Below, piece after piece: positions 1-47,862 of a DNA stretch of 47,862 nt. A model generated the notes under the pieces. It was not told where the DNA came from and searched no databases. It was given only the letters and a program-made list of their open reading frames with translations. Every line of letters begins with the position of its first letter. Position 1 is the first letter of the stretch. Origin of the DNA: a phage. The translations under genes were made by a program, and so were the position numbers. The stretch lies in sequence record OZ346152.1, one strand, 5' to 3'.

Positions 1-1569
1 ATGATCATATGGGAAGATTTGACGGCGGCGCAAAAGCGAGCCATTAAAGAAATCAGTGAGCATTCATTCGAAAAGATGATCAGAATCTGGTTCCAGTTAT
101 TGCAGGGGCAAAAATTCCAGAGCAACTGGCATTTTAGCTTATTGTGCAGTGAGGTAGAGAAGATCATCAATGGAGAGTCGCAGAATGTGATTTTCAACAT
201 TACGCCAGGTAGCGGTAAGACTGAGATTTTCTCGATCCACATGTCACCCTACGCGTCATTGAAAAGCCGGAAAGTGAGAAACCTTAACCTTTCGTTTAGT
301 GATGGCCTTGTCCAGCAAAACAGCAACCGGATAAAGGAGATTATTGGTTCTCCTGAGTGGCAAGAGCTATGGCCAGGAAAACTGGCAAAGGCGAGCGCCA
401 AAGATCTGATAGTCACCGAAGGCGGCAAGGTTAAATTGCAAGTTAACTCACGTTCTATTGGCGGCCAGGTAACAGGTTTGCGTGGTGGCTATATGGACGA
501 TGGTTTTACTGGTATGCTGGTTCTTGATGATCCAGACAAGCCGGATGATATGCTTTCTAAGGTAAAGCGTGAGGCTATCCACATGCGGTTAAAAAACACA
601 GTGCGATCGCGTCGAATGAAAGACACCACGCCGATTGTTATGGTGCAACAGCGACTACACGTTAATGATTCCACCTGGTTTATGCTTAATGGCGGGATGG
701 GTGGTATCGAGTTTAAAGTTGTGAGCATTCCGGCGCTGGTTACGGAAGAATACCGCGAGACGCTTCCTGATTGGTTGAAGCCTGAATTTGATCGTGATGT
801 GCTGTCAAGTAAGCCAGTGATGATAGATGGCGTTGCTCATTATTCATTTTGGCCTGCAAAGGAAAGCGCGGAGGAATTGCTTGCATTGCGCAATGCAGAT
901 CCTTACACGTTCGCCAGCCAATACCAACAGCAACCAATCGCGCTTGGCGGGAACGTGTTTAAAACAGAGTGGTTCCAGTATTACGGCAACGGCGAAAAAT
1001 GCGCGCTACCAAAACCGGATCGCTTTGAATACACATTTATTACTGGAGATACCGCGCAGAAGGCCGGAGAGCTTAACGACTATTCAGTTTTTTGTTATTG
1101 GGGGATGTATAAGAATCGCGTTTACTTCATTGATGGCATTCGCGGAAAGTGGGAAGCGCCGGATCTTGAATTAAATTTTATTGCCTTCGTTAACCAGTGT
1201 TGGAAGCGCAATAAAGAGTGTGGCAGCTTGCGACGTATCCACATTGAGGATAAGGCCAGCGGCACGGGCTTGATTCAGGGGGCCAAAAAGAAGATACCGA
1301 TTGATATAAATCCCGTTCAGCGAAGTAATGACAAGGTAACGCGCGCAATGGACGCCGCACCAGTGATGAGGGCCGGACGTGTGGCACTGCCAGAAAATCA
1401 CCCCATGCTGCCTGAGATACTGGCAGAGGTTGCAGCATTCACTTTTGATGATTCTCATCCCCATGATGATATTGTCGATAATATAGTTGATGCTGTTAAC
1501 GTCGAAATGAATTTGGCAGATGATCCGGTAGCAAGGATGAAAAAGTTGGCAGGTCTACGCAATAAATAG
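1..1569 (+). CDS. terL: terminase large subunit
   Basis: 522-aa ORF starting at window base 1; Walker A-like PGSGKT near the N-terminus; directly upstream of portal; TAG stop sits inside a box-motif copy. Confidence 0.8.
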   Translation: MIIWEDLTAAQKRAIKEISEHSFEKMIRIWFQLLQGQKFQSNWHFSLLCSEVEKIINGESQNVIFNITPGSGKTEIFSIHMSPYASLKSRKVRNLNLSFSDGLVQQNSNRIKEIIGSPEWQELWPGKLAKASAKDLIVTEGGKVKLQVNSRSIGGQVTGLRGGYMDDGFTGMLVLDDPDKPDDMLSKVKREAIHMRLKNTVRSRRMKDTTPIVMVQQRLHVNDSTWFMLNGGMGGIEFKVVSIPALVTEEYRETLPDWLKPEFDRDVLSSKPVMIDGVAHYSFWPAKESAEELLALRNADPYTFASQYQQQPIALGGNVFKTEWFQYYGNGEKCALPKPDRFEYTFITGDTAQKAGELNDYSVFCYWGMYKNRVYFIDGIRGKWEAPDLELNFIAFVNQCWKRNKECGSLRRIHIEDKASGTGLIQGAKKKIPIDINPVQRSNDKVTRAMDAAPVMRAGRVALPENHPMLPEILAEVAAFTFDDSHPHDDIVDNIVDAVNVEMNLADDPVARMKKLAGLRNK

Positions 1570-20672: not shown

Positions 20673-20703
20673 CTTCAATACTCCTTAGTTGTTGTTGGCT
20701 GTA

Positions 20704-20746
20704 ACTATACACGATCCGACAAGCTGGGTTTAGCAAAAAGTGCTAC
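20704..20746 (-). promoter_or_regulatory. box-type promoter unit (box, N18, TATAGT) firing leftward into the lipoprotein locus
   Basis: Minus-strand GTAGCACTTTTTGCTAAAC, 18 nt, TATAGT about 30 nt upstream of the lipoprotein RBS. Confidence 0.5.
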
Positions 20747-20869
20747 ATGTTATTTTTTGTTTTACAGTGTTATCTGATTTAAGACGGCGTAAATTTAGCG
20801 CAAATTTTATCCAACATAAGGGCAATAAACAATCAATAAAATAGATATATACATATAAAATCAATAGTT

Positions 20870-21050
20870 TATTTATGTATGTATGTATATTTGTTTTTTC
20901 TTGTTATCTGTGTTTCTTGTGGTTTTGGTTGTTTGTGGTGATTTTTCTTTCTGAGTATCTGTATGTGCCATCATTCATGTGTATGTATATAATCCGGCGT
21001 ATCTGAGAGAACAAGGGAACAAGAAAAATAACACATATTAATCATTAACT
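20870..21050. repeat. AT-rich intergenic element A, paralogous to 41140-41320
   Basis: Shared blocks (tttatttat, tgttttctt, tgtgg-rich run, catgtgtatgtatata..tccggcg, aacagaaaaataaca) in the same order. Confidence 0.6.
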
Positions 21051-21116
21051 TACGTGTCAGATTTGTTTTCTTGCCATCTGAGAACGTTTAGAAAACAGAA
21101 AAAAACAAAACAACTA

Positions 21117-23491: not shown

Positions 23492-25868
23492 AGTTAAGAG
23501 TAGTAGGATTGTTGATTAGCTTTGACAGTAAATCTTTTAATTCTGCAACCTCATTTTCAAGTTTGCTTATGCGATCATCACTTTCACGGCATACTTTCAC
23601 AAGCAATCCAGTAACAGCACCATAATCAACAGATAAGAATCTTTCCTCGCCAACTAACTGATTTCCATCCTTAGTTGGACCAGCAAGATCCGTGTACTGA
23701 GTGAATCCGCCAACAGCTTCCGGTATTGCCTCCATTACTTCTTGAGCAATTACCCCAGCATAAGGTAAACCATTCTCCTTAAGCGTGTAAGTGTATCCGC
23801 TCATTTTGCGCAATGATTCAGTCGCGTTTTCAATCTCCTCAATGTTGTCCTTAAGATCTCTGTCAGATACTTGATTGAATGCCGTCGCATTTACAGGGCC
23901 GTTAACTTGAAGATGCTTTGAGTTATCTTTATTTAACTGACCGTAAAAAATCCACCCAGGGCCGTTATCGAAAGCCCACTCAATAACAGACGGTCTATCT
24001 GACCCGTTCCCCCACAATTTGAAACTTGCAGGGTGTGATGAGTTTCCGTCGTTCTGCATATTGAAATACTTACCACTCGGTCGGTCTATCTCTAAACTCG
24101 CCGCCTGTACATATGCTTTTCCCGCAAAGTCTTTCGTACCTAACACAACCCCAGAATCGATAAGTTCAACCTTGCTTTTCGTTATGTCATTTAGAAATAA
24201 CGCACTCGTTCCAGTATCTTTACCTAAAAACCAAAGACGTGTGCCTGCGGAGTTGTACCCTGTTACGTGCAGCGGTTGGTTGTTTGTTGATGCTGTTCCG
24301 TCGATACGAAAACCGCCATTAGCGGTTGTAACTTTAATGCTTGGTACGGTCATAGCGAATGTGCCACTGGCCGCAAGGCCGTTATACGCGATCAGCTTGT
24401 TGTCATACGAAAGGCCGCCATCATCACGCAGCTGTAGCACTTTCTGCGACGTGCGGTTGCGAATGCCAACATCCGTGCCTCCTACAAACATTTCGACGAT
24501 TCGATCACCGCTTTTAGCTCTCACGTAAGCGTTATATTCCGGCGACGACCCCGCGTTATACAACTCGTACCATTTAGACCAGATGCCAGTAGTCGCGTTA
24601 CTAAGCCATCGCATAAAGCGACGCCCGCTATTGTATCCTGTAAACGTCTGTATGCAGCTTTTAGGATCGTTAGCGCCAGTGCGCTGAACAAGTAGACAAC
24701 CTGCTTCCTGAACGGGATAATTACGCTCCGGCGTTGCGTTGGCAGATAAGCTAGTATAATAAAATCCAGCCTTATCACCCTGAAGGATGTTAAGGTCTTC
24801 ACTAACCAACGTTGCCCGGCGCTCATGCATGACCTGAAGGTTTGCGCGCGCTCCCTGGTCGTTCGATGCTCCTGTCCCGCCGTCACCGATCGCCACGTCA
24901 CCATTAGCACCCAGCTTCGCCAGTTCAATGGCACCCACATTTCCAGATGAGCCGTTAATCGCGGCATTGTTTCCAGCGAAAACCTTCACGCGAGAGGTCA
25001 GGTAGTCAACGTTAAACGCAAAAAATGTGTCACCAGCACCCCCGCACACCCCAGGACCATATTTGAACGGCGTCATCTCGCCCGAAGGGAACTGAGAAAT
25101 ATCATCAACGCGCCAAAAGCCGCCTTTGACCGAATCGCGCAACCGCTTGAGCATATCCCTTACGCCAGTCGGCGCAGGTAATGTTACACCCGCATACGGC
25201 ACTCTATTTTGAGCTTCTGAACTTTCAGCAGCAGCCGCTGCGCGATCAGCCTCTGTTTTAGCCTTGTTTGCACTGTTTGCAGCATTAGTTTCCGATGTTT
25301 TAGCGTTTGTTTCAGAAGTCTTCGCGGCACTAGCCGAGTTAGCAGCATTAGTTTCCGATGTTTTAGCCGCATTCTTACTTGCATTAGCTGCATTTTCAGA
25401 TGCTTTGGCATTAGTTTCCGATGTTTTAGCGTTTGTTTCAGAAGTCTTTGCAGCACTAGCGCTCTGTTTTGCTGATTCAGCGCCTTGTTTCACCTGATTC
25501 ACAAGATCTTTCAACCCATCAAGATCGAAATCTCTAAAAAATTCAAGCGCGTCAGCAATCTCCGTTTCCTTGCTTTGATAGTAACGCAGTGTTTCCGCTA
25601 CGTCCTGCGCCAGCCCGTCAACCGTCAACGAGTCATGAAGCAAGATCAGGTAATTTGTCTTCTGGACTACCGCGCCGCCAGTAGTAATTGCGCGAATGCT
25701 TGTATCGCTAATCACCTCTGTAATCACAGCAGCTTGCAAAGGTTGAGTAAGAAAGAAAATAGTTGCACCTGGGCGAATCAATGTTAATTGCTCACGCCAT
25801 TTTGTATCGTAACCAGTTACATAACCTTGCGCGTCCATAGACGCTTGGCCTTGTCTGTAAATCGCCAT
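23490..25868 (-). CDS. side tail fibre with C-terminal intramolecular chaperone (S74-like) domain
   Basis: 792 aa from ATG at 25868 with AGGAGG RBS (track start 25892 is GTG); N-terminal SETNAK-type repeats; C-terminal [24 protein letters not shown]. Confidence 0.75.
25282..25460. repeat. imperfect tandem repeat, period about 63 bp, three copies, coding
   Basis: Near-identical blocks gcattagtttccgatgttttagc.. at 25282, 25345 and 25408 encoding the fibre's TSETNAK repeats. Confidence 0.7.
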
Positions 25869-26958: not shown

Positions 26959-27435
26959 TTAGCTATTCGTGCTGTTATCACCTTTGTAGAATCGTCCGCC
27001 TGGTTCGTAGTCTGAATTTTTGACTACGCGCAACATTTCGTATTTGTCGCAACGGGTAGTAAGGGGCTTACCGTTAGAGTCAAACCGCAGGTCTGGACGA
27101 CAAAACGAGGCGCGGTATCCTTTGCATCCATTATATTTGTAGTCGTTATGCACTTTTTGTGCTCCGGCGGCTGAAATCATACCACGCTTTCGCCATTGGT
27201 TAACTACTTGCTGAGATACGCGCAGACGTCGAGCCATAGCAGGAACACCGCCGTAATACTCGATCAGAATGTCAAGGCGAGATTTCAGGCTTGCTTTTAC
27301 CTCATCTCGCAGGATAAGAAATCCGGTTCGGTGTTTTCGTGGCTTTTTGTCTTTACCTCGTCGCGTTCCGTTGTTACCGTTAATAGTGCGCTTGTCGATC
27401 TCACCCGTAGACACTGCAATTCGTGCATCTTTCAT
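26959..27435 (-). CDS. HTH DNA-binding protein (Cro/XRE-like helix flanked by basic and Cys-containing segments)
   Basis: 158 aa; MARRLRVSQQVVNQWRKRG helix-turn-helix-like segment; N-terminal KKPRKHR; GAGGTG RBS. Confidence 0.4.
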   Translation of the reverse strand: MKDARIAVSTGEIDKRTINGNNGTRRGKDKKPRKHRTGFLILRDEVKASLKSRLDILIEYYGGVPAMARRLRVSQQVVNQWRKRGMISAAGAQKVHNDYKYNGCKGYRASFCRPDLRFDSNGKPLTTRCDKYEMLRVVKNSDYEPGGRFYKGDNSTNS

Positions 27436-27446
27436 CTAGTCACCTC

Positions 27447-27490
27447 ATAGCATTTTTTGTTAAAACAGTTTATTGTAATGAGTCTATTAT
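27447..27490 (+). promoter_or_regulatory. box-type promoter unit (box, N18, TATTAT) for the helicase operon
   Basis: ATAGCATTTTTTGTTAAAAC at 27447-27466, 18 nt, TATTAT at 27485-27490, ATG at 27523. Confidence 0.55.
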
Positions 27491-27522
27491 ATACTCCAAA
27501 TGGCATTTTTTAAAGGTTTAAG

Positions 27523-29520: not shown

Positions 29521-29939
29521 TGGCTATAACTGATAAAGGAGATTATCTTGAGTTTTACGAAAGAGATCCAACCGACACAAGAAGGGAGGTTAATCACCAG
29601 ATAGATAGTTTTCAGTGGTTGACTTATGCTCATCCTTACTTGCTGGCGTGGCATACGGTAAACGAGAATGAGAAGTCTAAAGTAACGGCTATGATTGATC
29701 AGCAGTCCGGCTTGGTTAAGGGAGTAAGCGATTTCATCATCCTGATTGGTTTAAACGGAAAATACCCCTTTGCAGCGATTGAGATCAAACGAGTGAATAA
29801 ATCAGGCAAGGGGAAAGCATCACCAGTCAGCGATGAGCAAAAGGCTTTTTTGCGTCGCGTTCGCAGCTTAGGAGGATTCGCTGCGGTAGCCTACGGATTC
29901 AATCAGTTTAAGTTGGCTATTGAATACATGCTTAAATAG
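29520..29939 (+). CDS. VRR-NUC domain nuclease
   Basis: 139 aa; D..E.K core (SDFIIL..AIEIKR); TAATG-coupled to the helicase; TAG stop inside a box. Confidence 0.55.
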   Translation: MAITDKGDYLEFYERDPTDTRREVNHQIDSFQWLTYAHPYLLAWHTVNENEKSKVTAMIDQQSGLVKGVSDFIILIGLNGKYPFAAIEIKRVNKSGKGKASPVSDEQKAFLRRVRSLGGFAAVAYGFNQFKLAIEYMLK

Positions 29940-29979
29940 CACTTTTTGTTAAAACTGGCGCAATGGATTGCGCCATAAT
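29936..29979 (+). promoter_or_regulatory. box-type promoter unit (box, N18 hairpin, CATAAT)
   Basis: Consensus box at 29936-29955; spacer TGGCGCAATGGATTGCGC is an inverted repeat; CATAAT at 29974-29979. Confidence 0.55.
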
Positions 29980-30018
29980 TCAATAACACGAGATTGCTTT
30001 TAATAGCGGAGAAATGAA

Positions 30019-30748: not shown

Positions 30749-31006
30749 ATGAAAAAAGAGAGAAGCGTTTATTTAAATGAAACTGGCGAATGGTTGTTAT
30801 TTCGCGCTATGGTGTGCGATGCACTTGATAAAAATCCTAACGTGAAAAAGATGATTGATTGCGATCCGTGGGAATTTTCAAGCGCATTAGATATGAGCTT
30901 TGAGGAGACAAGAAAACTCCCGCTTGAAAAATGGCACGAACAAATCAGAAATGACATGCAAGAGTTTGTCGATTCGTGGAATTTTCAGCACGGAATGATC
31001 CACTAA
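30749..31006 (+). CDS. hypothetical protein
   Basis: 85 aa; GGAG RBS; stop TAA-TAG merges into a box. Confidence 0.4.
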   Translation: MKKERSVYLNETGEWLLFRAMVCDALDKNPNVKKMIDCDPWEFSSALDMSFEETRKLPLEKWHEQIRNDMQEFVDSWNFQHGMIH

Positions 31007-31049
31007 TAGCACTTTTTGTTAAAACGCCCGGCCTAGTGTCGGGCATAAT
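31006..31049 (+). promoter_or_regulatory. box-type promoter unit (box, N18 hairpin GCCCGGCCTAGTGTCGGG, CATAAT)
   Basis: The whole 44-bp unit is nearly identical, in inverted orientation, to the unit at 34223-34266. Confidence 0.55.
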
Positions 31050-31081
31050 TATTTCAACGAAGCAAACATGAGGAAATAAAA

Positions 31082-34186: not shown

Positions 34187-34222
34187 AATTTTACCTTTTG
34201 GTTGTTTCGTTTCGATGAAACA

Positions 34223-34266
34223 AATATACCCGACACTAGGCCGGGCGTTTTAACAAAAAATGCTAT
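34223..34266 (-). promoter_or_regulatory. box-type promoter unit (box, N18 hairpin, TATATT), inverted copy of the 31006 unit
   Basis: Minus strand ATAGCATTTTTTGTTAAAAC, GCCCGGCCTAGTGTCGGG, TATATT. Confidence 0.55.
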
Positions 34267-34457
34267 TCCATACGCTTTACCGTAACCAGTAATACACCAT
34301 CATCATTGCATAAAACATGTTCAGTGGTGCTAAAAGCGCGCATATCTGAATAAAGTAGCGTAAGTAAAGCATGAATAAAATCCTCATGTGATATTGAATT
34401 TACGGCGCAGTGCTTCAAGATCTTGTCTATTAGCTTTTGCCTGGAACAATTCATCAT
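34263..34457 (-). CDS. hypothetical protein (overlaps the 3' end of the 34384 gene out of frame)
   Basis: 64 aa; GGGGAG RBS; TAG stop inside the box; real status uncertain. Confidence 0.25.
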   Translation of the reverse strand: MMNCSRQKLIDKILKHCAVNSISHEDFIHALLTLLYSDMRAFSTTEHVLCNDDGVLLVTVKRME

Positions 34458-36646: not shown

Positions 36647-37029
36647 AGATATTTTCCCTCAAAAAGATAACAGCCGCCAGCAGAGAATCCGACCTCTTCA
36701 CGGTACAGGTTCCAGCGGTCGCCGCACTCATCAAAAACATAACCCGCAACGCTTCCAAGCGGTCGCCCTTTCTCGATCTGGTATCGCTTGCCCTGCTTAA
36801 AGTGCTTTTTGCACGGCATGTTATGATCTACAAACGTGCAAAGAACGGTTTTTGTGTTAATGGCGCGGTAATCATCTCGGTTTGCTGGAAGCCAGCGGCT
36901 ACCCTTAACAAGCGTCTTAACTTGGAACTCTTCCACCTCGATCACATCATTACTTCCTGCAATCTTCTGATAAACCGTTTTAAAACGGCCTTTCATCAAT
37001 ACGTTGGTTTCATTACAGATAACATTCAT
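36643..37029 (-). CDS. hypothetical protein
   Basis: 128 aa; AAGGAG RBS; several Cys/His residues. Confidence 0.4.
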   Translation of the reverse strand: MNVICNETNVLMKGRFKTVYQKIAGSNDVIEVEEFQVKTLVKGSRWLPANRDDYRAINTKTVLCTFVDHNMPCKKHFKQGKRYQIEKGRPLGSVAGYVFDECGDRWNLYREEVGFSAGGCYLFEGKYL

Positions 37030-37102: not shown

Positions 37103-37809
37103 TTTGAGTTTGACTCAAAGACGGCGCGAGCAAAGCCGCGCGGAGTGAGGGAGCGGATCATCTTTGTGCGCGATGACTTGCCGCCAGTTTTGGCCCATCC
37201 TGGATTATCTTTGTCTTCCTCTTTCGGCAGGATTAAAGCGCGTGGAGGAATAACAAAGCCGTTGCCAGTCCAGAGGCACGTTTTCTTAAAGTAGCGATCC
37301 CGCGCCGGAATAATATCAGGGAAGTCGGGATGTTTATCATCTTCCGGCAGATAGCCAGCGTAATCGCACGGATGGAACGTATAATCAGGCTTTCGCCATA
37401 ACGTTGACAACTTGCCAACCGGATTTTCGATCATGTAAGGAACACCGAAATAATCAGCTATATCAGCCGCGATCCTGCAAGTGTCGGCGGCCTCATCCTG
37501 GAACGATGGATTCTCAAGGCGTTTTTTGGCCCAATGGCGAGATCCGCTATTTGCAAGGTCGGTGCATGGTGGAAATGCCATAATAAAGTCAGGAATGCCC
37601 CATTCCTCCCAGCGCGCGCGGTGGTAAAATCTTTCATCAATCCAGACGTTAACGTATTCGATATTCTCATGCTGTATGCGCACTGACTGGTAATCACCGT
37701 GATCGCCGCCGTCAGCATTAAAGCAAATGCACTTATAGCCATTATCAGCCCAATCTTTAACGGCTTTACCAGATCCATCAAATAGGGAGAATATTAAACC
37801 TTTATACAT
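37099..37809 (-). CDS. DNA C5-cytosine methyltransferase-like protein (small Dcm-type)
   Basis: 236 aa from ATG at 37809 with GAGG RBS; motif I-like FSLFDGSG, motif IV-like PPCTDLANSG, motif VI-like IENPVG; TAG stop inside the box. Confidence 0.55.
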   Translation of the reverse strand: MYKGLIFSLFDGSGKAVKDWADNGYKCICFNADGGDHGDYQSVRIQHENIEYVNVWIDERFYHRARWEEWGIPDFIMAFPPCTDLANSGSRHWAKKRLENPSFQDEAADTCRIAADIADYFGVPYMIENPVGKLSTLWRKPDYTFHPCDYAGYLPEDDKHPDFPDIIPARDRYFKKTCLWTGNGFVIPPRALILPKEEDKDNPGWAKTGGKSSRTKMIRSLTPRGFARAVFESNSK

Positions 37810-37819
37810 CGTAATTACC

Positions 37820-38044
37820 TCAAAACGGAAAACAGCGCGCACAACCAGGATCGAAATCGCATCCACAATCATTAACAATCATGGTGGGATCTGCAAATAT
37901 TGCGCTTGATTCAAGATCCATATCCATATCACCTAAAGCCTCATCAAGAGTCTTAATTTTATATGCCACTTCAAGCGCTGCCTCTTTATTTAGTCCGGCA
38001 TCTTCTGCCATTTGAAGGCGTTCAAAAAATCCGTCTTGACTCAT
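37820..38044 (-). CDS. small acidic protein with C-terminal Cys cluster
   Basis: 74 aa, Asp/Glu-rich, CGCDFDPGCARC near the C-terminus; AAGGAG RBS inside the upstream peptide ORF. Confidence 0.4.
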   Translation of the reverse strand: MSQDGFFERLQMAEDAGLNKEAALEVAYKIKTLDEALGDMDMDLESSAIFADPTMIVNDCGCDFDPGCARCFPF

Positions 38045-38157
38045 CGCATAATCTCCTTAATAACAACCAAGATAATAGCCAGGCCAGCAGCAGTAACCAA
38101 AAAGCCAGCCGCGCCAATAATCGAATAAAAAAAGAAATCAATAGCTTTATCCATCAT
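38041..38157 (-). CDS. small hydrophobic peptide (38 aa, single predicted TMD)
   Basis: MMDKAIDFFFYSIIGAAGFLVTAAGLAIILVVIKEIMR; GAGGTG RBS; stop overlaps the next ATG; below the track cutoff. Confidence 0.3.
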   Translation of the reverse strand: MMDKAIDFFFYSIIGAAGFLVTAAGLAIILVVIKEIMR

Positions 38158-38199
38158 TTTTCACCTCATTTAAAAGGCGGCAAAACGCCGCCAGATTAA

Positions 38200-38427
38200 T
38201 TAAAGAGCGCGCCAACTTTGAATATAGAAAGCGTTTTCTTCCAGTAATTCTTTTACCTGATCTTTATTGTATTTGCGCACCTTGCCGCCTGGATGGATGC
38301 CAATAAGATAGCCGCCTTTGCCCTCGGTGATAGTGATTTGGCTAATTCCGCAAGACTTATCAAGTTTTACAGCCACGCGGTGATGAGCGTCAATAGTTGC
38401 CATAATGTTTAAAACTTTTGCTTTCAT
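38200..38427 (-). CDS. hypothetical protein
   Basis: 75 aa; GAGGA RBS. Confidence 0.4.
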   Translation of the reverse strand: MKAKVLNIMATIDAHHRVAVKLDKSCGISQITITEGKGGYLIGIHPGGKVRKYNKDQVKELLEENAFYIQSWRAL

Positions 38428-38535
38428 TTAAATATCCTCAATTGAAATATGAATGACGTGGCGCTCTTTTCCCGTCGCCGCCGTAATGGTCATTTGCAAC
38501 CGCCACCATCCAGGTATTTTTGAAAATAAATAGCA

Positions 38536-38748
38536 TCATTTCTTATTTTTCATCTTAAATTTATGGCCTGGAACACCAGCGCCAATATAGCCATCGTTGT
38601 ATTCCATTAAATAAAGGTGAAGACCATTGTCTGAAATTACATGGGGATCTTCTTTGAGATTTCCCATTAGTGGATATTCTTTTCCGCGCGTAAATCTCCA
38701 AGTTGAGTTATAAGTTTCTACGCATTTAAGTTTTAATTGCTTTGCCAT
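38536..38748 (-). CDS. hypothetical protein
   Basis: 70 aa; TAATG-coupled to the upstream gene. Confidence 0.4.
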   Translation of the reverse strand: MAKQLKLKCVETYNSTWRFTRGKEYPLMGNLKEDPHVISDNGLHLYLMEYNDGYIGAGVPGHKFKMKNKK

Positions 38749-38945
38749 TAAATGATCTCCATTACGGTTTCAAAGCCAGCCAACTTGAAATGATATTCGT
38801 TAACCTTAACAACCTTCCATTCCAAGCCTGAATGGTAAGCAACCATATCATCAAGATCGATGGTAATTTCAGTGCCTTTCTTGAATAAGCCTTTTTCGTG
38901 AGACTTGTCGCGAATAATTACTTTAACATCAACTTGATTTTCCAT
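38748..38945 (-). CDS. hypothetical protein
   Basis: 65 aa from ATG at 38945 with GAGGA RBS (track start 38996 would lie inside the promoter unit). Confidence 0.4.
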   Translation of the reverse strand: MENQVDVKVIIRDKSHEKGLFKKGTEITIDLDDMVAYHSGLEWKVVKVNEYHFKLAGFETVMEII

Positions 38946-38976
38946 CTTTAAATCCTCGTTTGTTGTCGATGGGTGT

Positions 38977-39020
38977 AATATACCATTCAGGAGCACATCG
39001 TTTTTAACAAAAAGTGCTAT
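38977..39020 (-). promoter_or_regulatory. box-type promoter unit (box, N18, TATATT)
   Basis: Minus strand ATAGCACTTTTTGTTAAAAA, 18 nt, TATATT, then ..CATCGACAAC..GAGGATTT, ATG. Confidence 0.55.
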
Positions 39021-39307
39021 TCAACAACTTTTCCAGTTAAAGAGATAAGTTGCCTTGTAATCTTGTGGCGTCGATACTTACGCGCAACAACCGGAAGGTT
39101 TTCACCGCTTTGATGACCAAAACAGATCGGCAATTCACCTTCAAGCGAACGGAAGCCGCCAAATTCAAGATCCCGCACTGGCTTCGCGCGCCAGGCTTCA
39201 ATAAATCCGCGTTCGTCACGAGTGATATAGCGGTATATGTTCGGGAGGGGCAATTGTATCCCCTCAAAATCCACGGTATCGGTATAGCTATAAAACTTAG
39301 AACTCAT
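39017..39307 (-). CDS. hypothetical protein
   Basis: 96 aa from the ATG overlapping the upstream small-ORF stop; TAG stop inside the box. Confidence 0.4.
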   Translation of the reverse strand: MSSKFYSYTDTVDFEGIQLPLPNIYRYITRDERGFIEAWRAKPVRDLEFGGFRSLEGELPICFGHQSGENLPVVARKYRRHKITRQLISLTGKVVE

Positions 39308-39449
39308 AGTCAACAACTCCAAACTCGTTAACGATTTGCGCCTTGTAGAAGCCGCCATTTTTAGCCAGGTTGTAACAAGCGGCTACGGTTTCAAATTCGC
39401 GCGCTTCCGGCTGGCTGTTTTCGTGTTCCCAGGTAATCAGAGTAACCAT
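39297..39449 (-). CDS. hypothetical small protein (50 aa, below the track cutoff)
   Basis: Hand-translated MVTLITWEHENSQPEAREFETVAACYNLAKNGGFYKAQIVNEFGVVDYEF; GAGGA RBS 8 nt upstream. Confidence 0.3.
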   Translation of the reverse strand: MVTLITWEHENSQPEAREFETVAACYNLAKNGGFYKAQIVNEFGVVDYEF

Positions 39450-39482
39450 TTTCAAATCCTCACATTCGTTGTCGATGCGTGT

Positions 39483-39526
39483 AATGTACAGGAATGCGAG
39501 GATTGAGTTTTAACAAAAAGTGCTAT
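39483..39526 (-). promoter_or_regulatory. box-type promoter unit (box, N18, TACATT)
   Basis: Perfect consensus box on the minus strand; downstream leader GTACATTACACGCATCGACAACGAA resembles those at 38977 and 40787. Confidence 0.55.
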
Positions 39527-39790
39527 TTAGTCCAGAAATTCGATTTCACGCTCGCCAGTTAACGGATCTACAAGCCAGAATCCGAGAGGTTCGCCATAAA
39601 CACCGCCATAGAATCCAAGCGCCGCCAGATCTTCACCTTTAACGAATACCAGGTTCCCGCTACGGCTTACGTGAGACACGTTAACGATAACCGGAAATGT
39701 GCGATCCTTAAATGCGGGCCGCAGGGCGTAACATCCGTTATTAAGCAAACGTGCTTTGCGCTTAACTGGAATAGGTGCATTAATTTTCAT
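39527..39790 (-). CDS. hypothetical protein
   Basis: 87 aa; AAGGAG RBS; TAA stop merges into the box. Confidence 0.4.
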   Translation of the reverse strand: MKINAPIPVKRKARLLNNGCYALRPAFKDRTFPVIVNVSHVSRSGNLVFVKGEDLAALGFYGGVYGEPLGFWLVDPLTGEREIEFLD

Positions 39791-40016
39791 GGTTATTACT
39801 CCTTATCGTAAAGATTTAAAGACGTATAGTTTATTGCGGTAACTATATATCCGCATTGTTATTTCTCGCAATGCAATATATTCCTTCCTGTTTTCCGGCA
39901 TCCTGGCGAGCAATAACAGGCAGTATTTATAAGCGCGGTCAAGATTCCTTTCCGTGCCCCTGCAATATCCCTTGTTGCGCCTGGAGCGGTACAGCCATAA
40001 CAATTTCTTGAACATT

Positions 40017-40226
40017 TCAGATACGCCCATACAGATCGCAAACCTCGTTGATAAAACAGCGTTGAGACTCTTTATTGTCACGCTCAAAAATTGCGCGGCA
40101 TTCAAACTTAAGATTATGCACGATGACAACAACCATATTTTCAGGCATTGAGCGGTTATAGCGTCGCGCGTCAGTGATTAAAACATCCATACCCATCTCA
40201 TGTGCTTTCTTGATCACATCCAACAT
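40017..40226 (-). CDS. hypothetical protein
   Basis: 69 aa from ATG at 40226 with AGGAGA RBS (track start 40250 is TTG). Confidence 0.35.
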   Translation of the reverse strand: MLDVIKKAHEMGMDVLITDARRYNRSMPENMVVVIVHNLKFECRAIFERDNKESQRCFINEVCDLYGRI

Positions 40227-40480
40227 TTTTTCTTCTCCTGCAATAAGCAAACATCATTGATAAAATCAGCACGGCCCTTAATGTTGCTGATGTGGAACGT
40301 CTTTTCAGCGTACAGGCCATCACCTTCAATCACGATCATTACGCGAGTCGGTTTATTCACGGGCGCACATGAAAAGAGTGGGCGCACCGGAAGAAATTTA
40401 GTAGCCACATCCAGGTTAGCCCTGGCGGCCCTGCAAAATGCCTCCGCCAGATCCAAATCATTTTCGGTAATCACCGCCAT
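40214..40480 (-). CDS. hypothetical protein
   Basis: 88 aa; TAATG-coupled to the upstream gene. Confidence 0.35.
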   Translation of the reverse strand: MAVITENDLDLAEAFCRAARANLDVATKFLPVRPLFSCAPVNKPTRVMIVIEGDGLYAEKTFHISNIKGRADFINDVCLLQEKKKCWM

Positions 40481-40752
40481 TACTTCTTGATCTCCTCACT
40501 GATAAATTTCAGCACCTGACGCAAGAAAACTTCGTTGTTGATAGTCGCTGGCAATTCTTCCTTCACTTCTTGCGGCAGATAGATATTGCCGTGCCAGGTC
40601 AAGCAATCGTAGTTGATACGATAAGAGCAAAGCCACTCACAATCGTTATCTGCTTCCCAAATACAGAGTTGCAGAACATCGCCAAAATCTTCAACAGTCA
40701 GATCCAGACCGTGACGCTTAGCGAAGTTGAAAGTGGTTTTGCTGATGTTCAT
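40480..40752 (-). CDS. hypothetical protein (first gene of the leftward early block)
   Basis: 90 aa; AGGAGA RBS; several Cys/Trp residues. Confidence 0.4.
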   Translation of the reverse strand: MNISKTTFNFAKRHGLDLTVEDFGDVLQLCIWEADNDCEWLCSYRINYDCLTWHGNIYLPQEVKEELPATINNEVFLRQVLKFISEEIKK

Positions 40753-40786
40753 TGCTATCTCCTGAGCGGTTCGTTTTGATGTGTGT

Positions 40787-40830
40787 AATGTACCCGATCA
40801 GACGGCCTGAGTTTTAACAAAAAGTGCTAT
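40787..40830 (-). promoter_or_regulatory. box-type promoter unit (perfect box, N18, TACATT) for the leftward early block
   Basis: Minus strand ATAGCACTTTTTGTTAAAAC, TCAGGCCGTCTGATCGGG, TACATT, 34 nt before the ATG at 40752. Confidence 0.55.
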
Positions 40831-40860
40831 TTGACGGTTAGCACCAGGATTGTGATCGAA

Positions 40861-40949
40861 ATAATCAAAAGTAATCATTCGTAATCAAATCACGTCAAAA
40901 TGATGATTTCCTTTGCAAATTTGATGAGAAAAGTAATCACGTTTAATCA
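40861..40949. repeat. iteron-like array: five copies of (A/G/T)TAATCA with 10-bp phasing
   Basis: Copies starting at 40861, 40871, 40881, 40933 and 40943 in the divergent control region. Confidence 0.45.
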
Positions 40950-41139
40950 TTGGTTGCAGGGGAGATAGTGAAACCTTCCCCTCTTGCCTCACTTTTCCGC
41001 CTGGCTGTCAGTGGTTGTTGTCTTTTGTTCACCCCTGTTACCGATTTCAGGCGGCGTGTTTCCGCGCGGTTTTCCGGTGTAGCGAAAACGGAAAAAACAA
41101 AAAAAATCCTATATAATACATTGAAAATAAAGATTATTT

Positions 41140-41320
41140 ATTTATATATATCTATAATGTTTTCTTTTTGTTCTCACTGTTACAGTGCTTTTTGTTGGTT
41201 ATGGTGTGGTTGTGTGTGGGTATATATGGATAGTTGCGCGCGCTGCGGATTGCATATGTATATATACTTTTTCCGGCGGATTGCGTTAACAGCGTGAACA
41301 GAAAAATAACAGCCCTGAAA
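41140..41320. repeat. AT-rich intergenic element B, paralogous to 20870-21050
   Basis: Same ordered blocks as element A; an estimated 65-70% identity by eye. Confidence 0.6.
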
Positions 41321-41385
41321 TCAACAACTTGCGCATGATTTTGTAGTTTTTCGATATTGGTAACGTTTTGAATACAACAAAAACA

Positions 41386-41413
41386 TTGACACGCACCAAA
41401 TAGCTTTTATAAT
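41386..41413 (+). promoter_or_regulatory. sigma70-type promoter (TTGACA, 16 nt, TATAAT)
   Basis: Consensus -35 at 41386-41391 and consensus -10 at 41408-41413; about 30 nt upstream of the 41445 ATG. Confidence 0.6.
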
Positions 41414-43333: not shown

Positions 43334-43924
43334 ATGAAACGAGACATTATCATCCTTAATGGGCCGCCAGGTTGCGGGAAGGACACTATTGCAGCTTACC
43401 TAACGGGCCATCGTTACCCAGCGGTTAAGGCATCATTCAAGCAACCTATGTTCGACATTGCTTTTTCTATGCTTGGCCCGACTCGATACGATGAATTTAT
43501 GGGCCTATACAACGACCGAGAGCAAAAAGAAAAGCCTCAAGTTATCTTAGGTGGCAAGTCGCCTCGACAATTCATGATCTGGATTAGCGAGGATGTAATG
43601 AAGCCAGTTTTTGGAGATCACTATTTCGGGCGTCGAATGGTTGAAGAGATTCACGAGATGTACCGAGATTTGTCGGTTGTGATCAGTGATGGCGGATTCC
43701 CCGAAGAAATCAAGCCGCTCGTTAAGGCGGGGCATGAGGTGCATATTTGCCGATTGCATCGCGACGGCTTCACGTTTGCTGGCGATTCGAGAGATTATAT
43801 TGACCTGAGCGGTTATCACTATCGAATCCATCACTATGATTTCCACTTGCAGGACGGCAAGCCGGAACTGGCTGTAAGCGAGATCGTCAATGCAGTCAAA
43901 TGGAAGCACACACAGATTAAATAG
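43334..43924 (+). CDS. P-loop kinase, dNMP-kinase-like
   Basis: N-terminal IIILNGPPGCGKDT P-loop resembling the phage dNMP kinase family; TAG stop inside the box. Confidence 0.5.
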   Translation: MKRDIIILNGPPGCGKDTIAAYLTGHRYPAVKASFKQPMFDIAFSMLGPTRYDEFMGLYNDREQKEKPQVILGGKSPRQFMIWISEDVMKPVFGDHYFGRRMVEEIHEMYRDLSVVISDGGFPEEIKPLVKAGHEVHICRLHRDGFTFAGDSRDYIDLSGYHYRIHHYDFHLQDGKPELAVSEIVNAVKWKHTQIK

Positions 43925-43964
43925 CACGAATTGCTAAACGCGGGGTTATCGGCCCCGCTATAAT
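43921..43964 (+). promoter_or_regulatory. box-type promoter unit (variant ATAGCACGAATTGCTAAACG, N18 hairpin, TATAAT)
   Basis: Spacer CGGGGTTATCGGCCCCGC is a dyad; consensus TATAAT at 43959-43964; ATG at 43995. Confidence 0.55.
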
Positions 43965-43994
43965 GCTCACATCAACAAGCAAGAGGAAATCGCA

Positions 43995-44924: not shown

Positions 44925-45215
44925 ATGGCAAACAAAACTTACCGCAAACTACTGGTTAACGCTTTTGAAAACATCGCGCAGTGTAACAAGTGGAACGACT
45001 CTAAACACTCGCCAGTCACAATGAAGCGCGCCGGATTCAAAAATGCTCGTTCATGGGCGCGAGCTTTCGCAGCTTGCTATATGCCGGATGGTGGACTAGG
45101 AGCGATGAACGACTTCTTGATCAACATGATAGAGGAAGCGGCGCGAGAGGATCGACCGCTGACACAGCGAGATTTTGACGACTTCGCGCGCGATGAGCTT
45201 TACTATCTGAGCTAA
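44925..45215 (+). CDS. hypothetical protein
   Basis: 96 aa; AAGGGGA RBS; stop TAA-TAG merges into the box. Confidence 0.4.
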   Translation: MANKTYRKLLVNAFENIAQCNKWNDSKHSPVTMKRAGFKNARSWARAFAACYMPDGGLGAMNDFLINMIEEAAREDRPLTQRDFDDFARDELYYLS

Positions 45216-45258
45216 TAGCACTTTTTGTTAAAACTTCCGCAAGGGCATTTGATAAAGT
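45215..45258 (+). promoter_or_regulatory. box-type promoter unit (perfect box, N18, TAAAGT)
   Basis: ATAGCACTTTTTGTTAAAAC at 45215-45234; GGGCA..TGCCC dyad spans the -10; ATG at 45291. Confidence 0.5.
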
Positions 45259-45290
45259 GCCCTTATTGAAGCGAAACAGAGGAAAGCGCA

Positions 45291-47335: not shown

Positions 47336-47862
47336 ATGGCTAAAAACGTTGAGCCTGCTGTAAAGGCATTAAATTTCAAAGAGTTATACAATAAAACTTA
47401 TGGCGATATTGTTACGCTAAACAACCGCCACAAGTACACGCCGGAACAGGTTTTTGATATGGCGATCCGCTATTTCACTTGGGCCGAAGAGAATCACATT
47501 CAGGCGGCTGAAACTGCTTCCTTTCAGGGTGACGTGTACGAGAGCAGAGTTTACAAGCCTCGCGTTTTCACGGTAAACGGATTCAGCTTGTATCTCGGCG
47601 TGACTGAGGCGGCTGTAAGCAAATGGCGTAAAGAGCCTGGATTCTGCGATGTGATGGAGTTTGTTGATAAAGTAATTTACGAGCAAAAATTCCAGCTTGC
47701 GGCAAATAACATGATTAACGCTGGATTTATCGGTAAAGAGATCGGAGTAGAGAAGCCAGCAACAGTGAGCGTTGAAGCGAGCGCGGCAGCTAATGCAAGC
47801 ATTGACGCAGTAACTGCCGATGAGGTGAAAGAGGCTGTGATTGATATTCTGGAGCAACTTTA
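47336..47862 (+). CDS. terS: terminase small subunit (putative; 3' end at the window edge)
   Basis: ATG with AAGGAGGA RBS; 175 codons run to the last base; the final 'ta' plus window base 1 'a' would give a TAA overlapping the terL ATG on a circular map; absent from the track because no in-window stop. Confidence 0.5.
   Translation, partial: MAKNVEPAVKALNFKELYNKTYGDIVTLNNRHKYTPEQVFDMAIRYFTWAEENHIQAAETASFQGDVYESRVYKPRVFTVNGFSLYLGVTEAAVSKWRKEPGFCDVMEFVDKVIYEQKFQLAANNMINAGFIGKEIGVEKPATVSVEASAAANASIDAVTADEVKEAVIDILEQL

Follow-up and report, generated by a model that had tools for sequence, protein, structure and literature searches.

A phased TAATCA array beside the genome ends of T1-like phages, a candidate recognition element for DNA packaging

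The array and its intergenic setting

The DNA analyzed here (the window, 47,862 nucleotides, record OZ346152.1) is a complete circularly permuted T1-like siphovirus genome (Drexlerviridae, Tempevirinae, close to Warwickvirus). It opens at the start codon of the large terminase gene, and the small terminase gene ends on its last base, such that the terS stop codon overlaps the terL start codon across the circular junction. Three genes of the window bear on the argument.

1-1569 (+): terL, encoding the large terminase (nuclease/ATPase), which would make the packaging cut
26962-27435 (-): gene for a Cro/YdaS-like HTH protein ("putative transcriptional regulator"), an alternative candidate binder of the array
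47336-47862 (+): terS, encoding the small terminase (P22 gp3 family), the candidate array-recognizing protein

The array lies within a 683-bp divergent early intergenic region bounded on the left by a leftward gene starting at 40752 and on the right by a rightward DUF7174 gene, which is preceded by a perfect TTGACA-16-TATAAT promoter at 41386-41413. As a preliminary description made from the sequence had stated, the array is situated between a minus-strand box (40811-40831) and a paralogous element, which starts at 41016. The features of this segment are as follows.

40811-40831 (-): leftward box AATAGCACTTTTTGTTAAAAC, which borders the module on the left and marks the recombination boundary of phage MatMar
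40830-41015: candidate pac module of 185 bp, absent at 20.7 kb
40862-40887 (+): hexamer group 1, three TAATCA copies (40862, 40872 and 40882) with an exact 10-bp period
40888-40892 (+): extra AATCA half-site TAATCAAATCA, 5 bp past hexamer 3; the TAATCAAATCA string is inverted in phage TLS
40896-40908 (-): spacer element ATGATGATT, which includes an inverted TGATT (40904)
40934-40949 (+): hexamer group 2, two TAATCA copies (40934 and 40944), in phase with group 1 (52 bp, ~5 turns)
40953-40968: putative first packaging cut zone of 16 bp, placed by homology to the ends of relatives
40958-40985: small conserved hairpin, AGGGG (40958-62)-loop-CCCCT, with the record starts of phages XY3 and G29-2 in the loop

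The sequence of the array region is gaaATAATCAaaaGTAATCAttcGTAATCAaatcacgtcaaaatgatgatttcctttgcaaatttgatgagaaaaGTAATCAcgtTTAATCAttgg. The five seven-base copies had been placed at 40861 (ATAATCA), 40871, 40881 and 40933 (GTAATCA in each case) and 40943 (TTAATCA), and all of these coordinates were correct upon re-checking. The TAATCA hexamers themselves thus begin one base further on, and five of five read on the plus strand. Helical phasing of the copies had also been proposed and is borne out: the spacings of 10, 10, 52 and 10 bp place every hexamer within ~40 degrees of one face of the helix when calculated at 10.4 bp per turn. The 4-bp spacers between the hexamers vary, whereas the exact hexamer is kept five times. 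The sixth AATCA half-site and the inverted TGATT were absent from the earlier description. The element that carries the latter, ATGATGATT, is the IHF consensus AATCATCATTTTG with one mismatch, a weak site of which ~1.2 are expected per 683 bp. The ATGATGATT and TGATGAG strings of the spacer are common to TLS and T1, where they are found near base 1.

Throughout the 47.9-kb window TAATCA is in mild excess (54 copies vs 32.5 expected), but it clusters only here. The maximum in any other 95-bp stretch of the genome is two copies, and in 300 genomes simulated with an order-1 Markov model the largest cluster was three per 95 bp. Scanning the whole window at other positions gave no second cluster and no pairs of TAATC at period 10, and so the dense occurrence of the repeat throughout AT-rich intergenic DNA, which the preliminary description had named as the observation that would count against it, was not found. 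The five-hexamer array is real, unique and phased, and is not due to chance. As judged from its sequence it holds up as a unique phased set of short sites of the kind that would be bound by a multimeric DNA-binding protein.

The base composition changes to the right of the array. The array has 31% GC and the stretch 40960-41100 has 52% GC. This stretch had been described as GC-rich with dyad symmetry; the composition stands, but the symmetry is not special, the single-stranded fold having a z score of 0.01 relative to shuffled versions. We also discarded a GC-rich dyad at 40940-41100 as a structured element, because its fold energy equals that of shuffled sequence and from 41016 onward it is part of the paralogous element. 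The sole structure standing out in the GC-rich stretch is the AGGGG/CCCCT hairpin, and an Rfam scan of the whole window gave no family at threshold.

The 21-nt box repeat aaATAGCACnnnTTGnTAAAA was published for TLS as a repeat whose role its authors left open; at least 17 copies are present in the window, including that at 40811-40831 (-). A separate observation is that the box (in the form ATAGCACnnnTTGnTAAAA) is followed ~20 bp on by a conserved -10-like element (cATAAT / GTAtATTACAC), for example at 29933-29980, 31003-31050, 43918-43965 and 45212-45259 on the plus strand and at 34206-34267, 38960-39021, 39466-39527 and 40770-40831 on the minus strand. A GC-rich hairpin such as CTGGCGCAATGGATTGCGCCA is often embedded in the spacer between box and -10-like element. 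Taken together, box and -10-like element look like a class of phage-specific promoters whose spacer is unusually long and structured.

A second divergent intergenic region, located at 20.7-21.1 kb, is paralogous to the array region (65% identity over 381 bp, E = 4e-29). Positions 20685-20745 of this copy A align to 40770-40829 of copy B (the box region), and 20748-21107 align to 41016-41385. Both copies combine a leftward box with an AT-rich TATATA element and a strong sigma-70 promoter directed rightward. However, in copy A the box directly abuts the TATATA element, whereas in copy B the 185 bp from ~40830 to 41015 lie in between, and this insert contains the whole array, the hairpin and the putative cut zone. 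Because box, TATATA element and promoter occur together at 20.7 kb with no array, we consider the array to be a separate functional module. Two observations concern the DNA to the right of it. The TATATA element is kept even in distant Drexlerviridae of Salmonella, Citrobacter and Enterobacter, and it might act as an enhancer, as an origin or as a signal for DNA entry. At 41319-41340, away from the array (which has only the weak site in its spacer), AATCAACAACTTG matches the IHF consensus perfectly; it is part of an inverted AATCA...TGATT pair ~45 bp upstream of the -35 element of the rightward early promoter.

The setting of the array bears directly on an operator function, in which a phage protein such as the Cro/YdaS-like HTH protein would bind the repeats as an operator or activator array and switch the leftward early operon on or off. 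The leftward box promoter is ~30-140 bp downstream of the array, and a direct-repeat period of 10 bp fits regulators that bind in tandem. A further target of such a protein might be a weak rightward promoter-like site (TTAGCA-16-AATAAT, 40838-40865), a 9/12 match that overlaps hexamer 1, but the count of such sites is no higher than in shuffled sequence. Moreover, the hexamer motif is absent from all of the other box copies (at least 16), the 20.7-kb region manages the same box, AT-rich element and sigma-70 promoter without an array, and the promoter region of the HTH regulator itself (27436-27522) contains no AATCA.

Genome ends and repeat cassettes in relatives

Seven genome-end anchors from three Drexlerviridae subfamilies lie about 0-60 bp right of the repeat cassette that occupies the homologous position. 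The anchors are base 1 of T1, base 1 of TLS, the PhageTerm ends of MSK and SU57, and the record ends of XY3, G29-2 and haarsle, of which the T1 and TLS starts are of low resolution and the GenBank record starts are no proof of physical ends. T1, TLS, MSK and SU57 are documented pac (headful) phages.

In T1 a 2.8-kb terminal repeat starts at base 1, which is in the homologous intergenic region 36 bp right of the T1 cassette, and the first bases (GTTGCA) align to positions 40953-40958 of the window. Base 1 of TLS was set by restriction mapping of a submolar pac fragment, the exact base being picked by resemblance to the P22 pac site (2024 re-annotation), and it falls within a run of TGATT right of the TLS cassette. 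For MSK a packaging start at 36,862 in the forward direction was reported from PhageTerm (p = 1.6e-9); this is position 1063 of our MSK locus L265, directly past the right side of the repeats at ~150 bp from the box. The SU57 record was opened at a PhageTerm end coinciding with a step in coverage, and its start is 21 bp from the homologous position. The three remaining anchors, from unrelated records, are mutually within 10 bp: XY3 starts at window position 40968, G29-2 starts at about 40967 and the haarsle record ends at 40958/9. If linearization were random, ~0.05 such record ends would be expected by chance among the ~125 records. The direction of packaging is rightward in T1 and in MSK.

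Given these ends, we infer that Drexlerviridae make their first packaging cut inside the module, at a distance of a few to a few tens of bp from the right side of the repeats. A location of the packaging start within the module is very probable, and more secure than the role proposed below for the array itself. In the literature searched we found no pac signal defined at the sequence level for any T1-like phage; work on phage Rtp had proposed ATATA repeats as a guess.

Searches of related genomes, an avenue raised in the preliminary description, gave a divided answer. The array itself was found in 61 records, whereas other lineages have different repeats with an AATCA/TGATT core in common. The relatives keep the flanks, with the box to the left of the slot and the GGGGAGATAG hairpin to its right, and the repeats in between are lineage-specific. 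The T-type cassette, with TAATCA as in the window, is at least 95% identical in each of the 61 records; a comparison of six T-type sequences showed no change in the hexamers, but substitutions are too few for a significant difference from the spacers. The A-type cassette, carried by 64 Hanrivervirus records, is composed of two TTATTCC, one TTAATCA and two GGAATAA plus the palindrome TAATCAagtGATTA, and variants of it are present in MatMar and T1. TLS has two copies of AGACCGATTGGTCT followed by the TGATT run, and the Braunvirinae MSK and SU57 have ATTGCA/TGCAAT plus TGATT. The AATCA/TGATT core is found beside the anchored end in five lineages, at 7, 4, 4, 5 and 5 copies per 180 bp vs 0.9 expected. 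Its orientation depends on the lineage, AATCA being on the top strand in the window and TGATT in T1, TLS and MSK.

A comparison with MatMar gave a further observation on how cassettes may be exchanged. MatMar is 95-98% identical to the window over 37200-40800 and about 70-80% identical elsewhere, and identity collapses exactly where the cassette begins, which places a recombination boundary at 40801-40835 of the window (about 41080 in MatMar, locus L020). This suggests that the conserved box may serve as a recombination joint for module exchange.

Wider searches were less productive. Scanning viral and metagenome contig collections for TAATCA-N4-TAATCA-N4-TAATCA recovered mostly unrelated 10-bp tandem repeats and only one T1-like locus, and a search for related loci with the DUF7174 protein found only two. 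Several incidental observations were made. About 20 UNVERIFIED "Campylobacter jejuni phage" records (MG0656xx; E6, A113, A118 and others) are Hanrivervirus T1-like coliphage genomes with the A-type cassette, and are probably contaminants or have a mis-assigned host. At 25282-25460 of the window a tandem repeat with 21/42/63-bp periodicity (GCATTAGTTTCCGATGTTTTAGC...) lies inside the minus-strand lateral tail fiber gene, a region lacking a counterpart in MatMar (23600-25600 unmatched). The T1 record NC_005833 opens (bases 1-17) with the perfect palindrome GTTGCAtggtgTGCAAC; it has a second box followed by CGATTACGATTACG (103-134), and three tandem copies of CGATTAACA precede the first rightward gene (396-424). 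Hence, repeats of the GATTA/TAATC type are present at several positions within the intergenic region of T1.

Candidate binders and competing readings

The small terminase (TerS) of the window belongs to the P22 gp3 family (PF16677, 43.5 bits with a cut-off of 29.4, E = 3.8e-11; PDB 3P9A, E = 1.7e-15). TerS proteins of at least 95% identity were found in 61 records, which are those that carry the T-type cassette. Each search listed 60 records, of which 59 were shared, and the odd record in each listing is consistent with the one unlisted record of the other search. The next TerS identity band is at 80% or below. The Cro/YdaS-like HTH protein gave the same count, being at least 99% identical in exactly 61 records, a match that speaks for the operator reading. 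Thus, the co-occurrence of cassette and TerS is confounded by clade, and covariation does not separate TerS from the Cro-like regulator. MatMar, a Warwickvirus with a foreign cassette, has a TerS that is 66.5% identical, but its genome as a whole is about 75-85% identical, so that the divergence is not specific to TerS.

Two other groups of candidate binders were rejected. The leftward early proteins are encoded in the block 37200-40800, which is 95-98% identical in MatMar up to the box, yet the MatMar cassette is different. The DUF7174 protein is at least 95% identical in only 45 of the 61 T-type records. Hence, neither of the flanking early gene sets tracks the cassette. The near identity of the MatMar leftward operon despite its different cassette also argues against the array controlling that operon, and together with the paralogous region and the missing phased pairs it makes an operator function unlikely.

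A second alternative retains a packaging role and removes the sequence read-out. The phased AT-rich repeats and A-tracts would form a bent or easily wrapped 90-bp segment that is chosen for its conformation as a shape signal within pac, with TAATCA being incidental and arising from local duplication. The A-runs of three or more (40859, 40867, 40887 and 40897) are at intervals of 8, 20 and 10 bp and thus roughly in helical phase, the AT-rich array is flanked by DNA of much higher GC content, and studies of SPP1 and SF6 favor a TerS ring that selects pac DNA by its conformation. It is also in keeping with this reading that the cassettes differ greatly between lineages although their TerS proteins are 50-75% identical. 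However, conservation of the exact hexamer in all five positions amid differing 4-bp spacers is not what an incidental sequence would give, nor is recurrence of the AATCA/TGATT core beside the end in five lineages. We regard shape alone as a plausible but less likely basis for the array.

The preliminary description had proposed iterons or operators. The general idea of a phased array of short sites stands, but neither function is the best fit, and the array coincides with the packaging start of relatives. If the repeats were replication-origin iterons, an initiator would bind the five copies and melt the nearby AT-rich TATATA element (41100-41270). In favor of this function, the direct repeats are unique and phased, and a very AT-rich segment shared with distant Drexlerviridae lies no more than ~150 bp away. 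Nevertheless, there is no cluster of DnaA boxes (one DnaA-like site with a single mismatch was seen) and GATC has two sites where about four are expected. A copy of the AT-rich element at 20.7 kb has no array beside it, no initiator-like protein was found or tracks the cassette, and at 6-7 bp per 10-bp unit the repeats fall well short of the usual iteron length. With the array positioned beside the mapped genome ends of relatives, we consider an origin quite improbable.

Host factors fare worse. The geometry of direct repeats at 10 bp is typical of the OmpR/PhoB family of response regulators, and GTAATcattcGTAAT resembles the CpxR box GTAAA-N5-GTAAA, the consensus being matched at 40871 with two mismatches. 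There is, however, a mismatch in each half-site, and close relatives growing on the same host have wholly different cassettes, which a host factor would not explain. Binding by such a regulator thus seems highly improbable. The scan for host-factor motifs found no Fis site and no DnaA-box cluster, and GATC was depleted.

A candidate packaging module and known systems

The reading we prefer, with somewhat better than even confidence, is that the TAATCA array is the recognition part of a pac site that is bound or wrapped by the P22-gp3-type TerS and directs packaging rightward. We infer that this phage is cut where its relatives are and that TerS is the binder. The uniqueness of the array in the genome was counted in favor of this reading, because a pac site should be unique. 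Also counted were the anchored ends of relatives, confinement of the array to an insert missing at 20.7 kb, enrichment of the AATCA/TGATT core, the matching sets of cassette and TerS records and a layout like that of known pac and cos sites. The lineage-dependent orientation of the core and the single in-gene site used by P22 TerS count against it. In the proposed sequence of events, oligomeric TerS would bind or wrap the ~90-bp AT-rich stretch with the five hexamers on one face and the 45-bp spacer possibly bent. The bound TerS would thereby place the large terminase for a first cut at about 40953-40968, 4-20 bp right of the array and within or beside the small hairpin, and headful packaging would proceed rightward through the early genes towards terS and terL. 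The lineage-specific repeat cassette may set packaging specificity.

Whether TerS reads the hexamers themselves we judge to be evenly balanced. Recurrence of the AATCA/TGATT core beside the ends of five lineages argues for some base-specific read-out, but the isolated DNA-binding domain of the SF6 small terminase bound without sequence specificity, which makes hexamer read-out uncertain.

By analogy, the four cassette types (TAATCA; TTATTCC/GGAATAA; AGACCGATTGGTCT; ATTGCA/TGCAAT) might constitute a swappable packaging-specificity module, each cassette being matched to its own gp3-family TerS allele and exchanged by recombination at the box. This extension is speculative, and we put it forward only tentatively. 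If it is true, co-infecting T1-like phages would avoid packaging the DNA of one another, and a P22-family TerS would have come to read an array of several sites in place of one 22-bp site.

T1 is a classical T phage and a generalized transducer. The analysis narrows the pac signal of T1-like phages to a 185-bp module having a mutable candidate (the five hexamers) and a predicted 16-bp cut zone. This opens to testing pac recognition by gp3-family TerS proteins, packaging specificity between co-infecting Drexlerviridae and the engineering of T1-like phages and pac plasmids for transduction. It would also supply a biologically meaningful start coordinate for several hundred Drexlerviridae records that are now opened arbitrarily.

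P22 provides the homologous TerS and also packages by headful. However, the P22 pac is a single asymmetric 22-bp site inside gene 3, whereas the site proposed here is intergenic and repeated, with the ends 6.4 kb upstream of terS. A P22 pac look-alike, the approach used for TLS, was absent: the P22 22-mer had no match in the window at up to three mismatches, and the 12-mer pac core matched at chance frequency and never in terS.

Iterons of lambdoid and plasmid origins share with the array direct repeats in helical phase near AT-rich DNA. They are typically 17-22 bp long and located next to or inside the initiator gene, whereas here no initiator, DnaA boxes or GATC cluster was found.

The pac site of P1 contains seven TGATCA/G hexamers in groups of four and three around the cut, together with an IHF site, and is under Dam control. 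The array resembles it in having two hexamer groups (here three plus two) and a spacer with a possible IHF-like site, and TAATCA and TGATCA are one base apart. Unlike P1, where the cut is between the groups, the putative cut here is to the right of both, and the P1 pacase is unrelated. The hexamers of the array lack GATC, which makes Dam control impossible, and GATC is under-represented in the region.

In cosB of lambda and phage 21 (R3-I1-R2-R1), gpNu1 reads 16-bp R sites and a staggered nick is made at cosN. The model proposed here for the T-type and A-type cassettes likewise has repeated TerS sites beside the cut, a bend site between them and lineage-specific repeats that set packaging specificity. 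Lambda packages from cos, however, whereas the T1-like phages are headful pac phages in which the pairing for specificity is putative.

SPP1 and SF6 offer a similar layout (boxA in pacL, the cut in pacC, then pacR). The SPP1 pac site has direct-repeat boxes, its pacL is protected by TerS and the cut is made between repeat sets; the repeats differ between SPP1 and SF6. The isolated SF6 DNA-binding domain noted above showed little specificity for the repeat elements, and the SF6 authors proposed that pac DNA is selected by conformation. The module described here would share with both systems short direct repeats by a defined first cut, most of them in DNA left out of the first headful, and AT-rich bendable DNA suited to wrapping on a TerS ring. 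In each case the repeats vary among close relatives and the flanks do not. The arrangement differs in that the SPP1 pac overlaps the terS promoter and start, whereas the candidate site is ~6.4 kb ahead of terS, between the divergent early genes, and in that SPP1 TerS has an N-terminal HTH fold, whereas the TerS here is gp3-like and its binding is predicted. By these comparisons the candidate module is best filed among the repeat-containing pac sites, a known mechanistic class.
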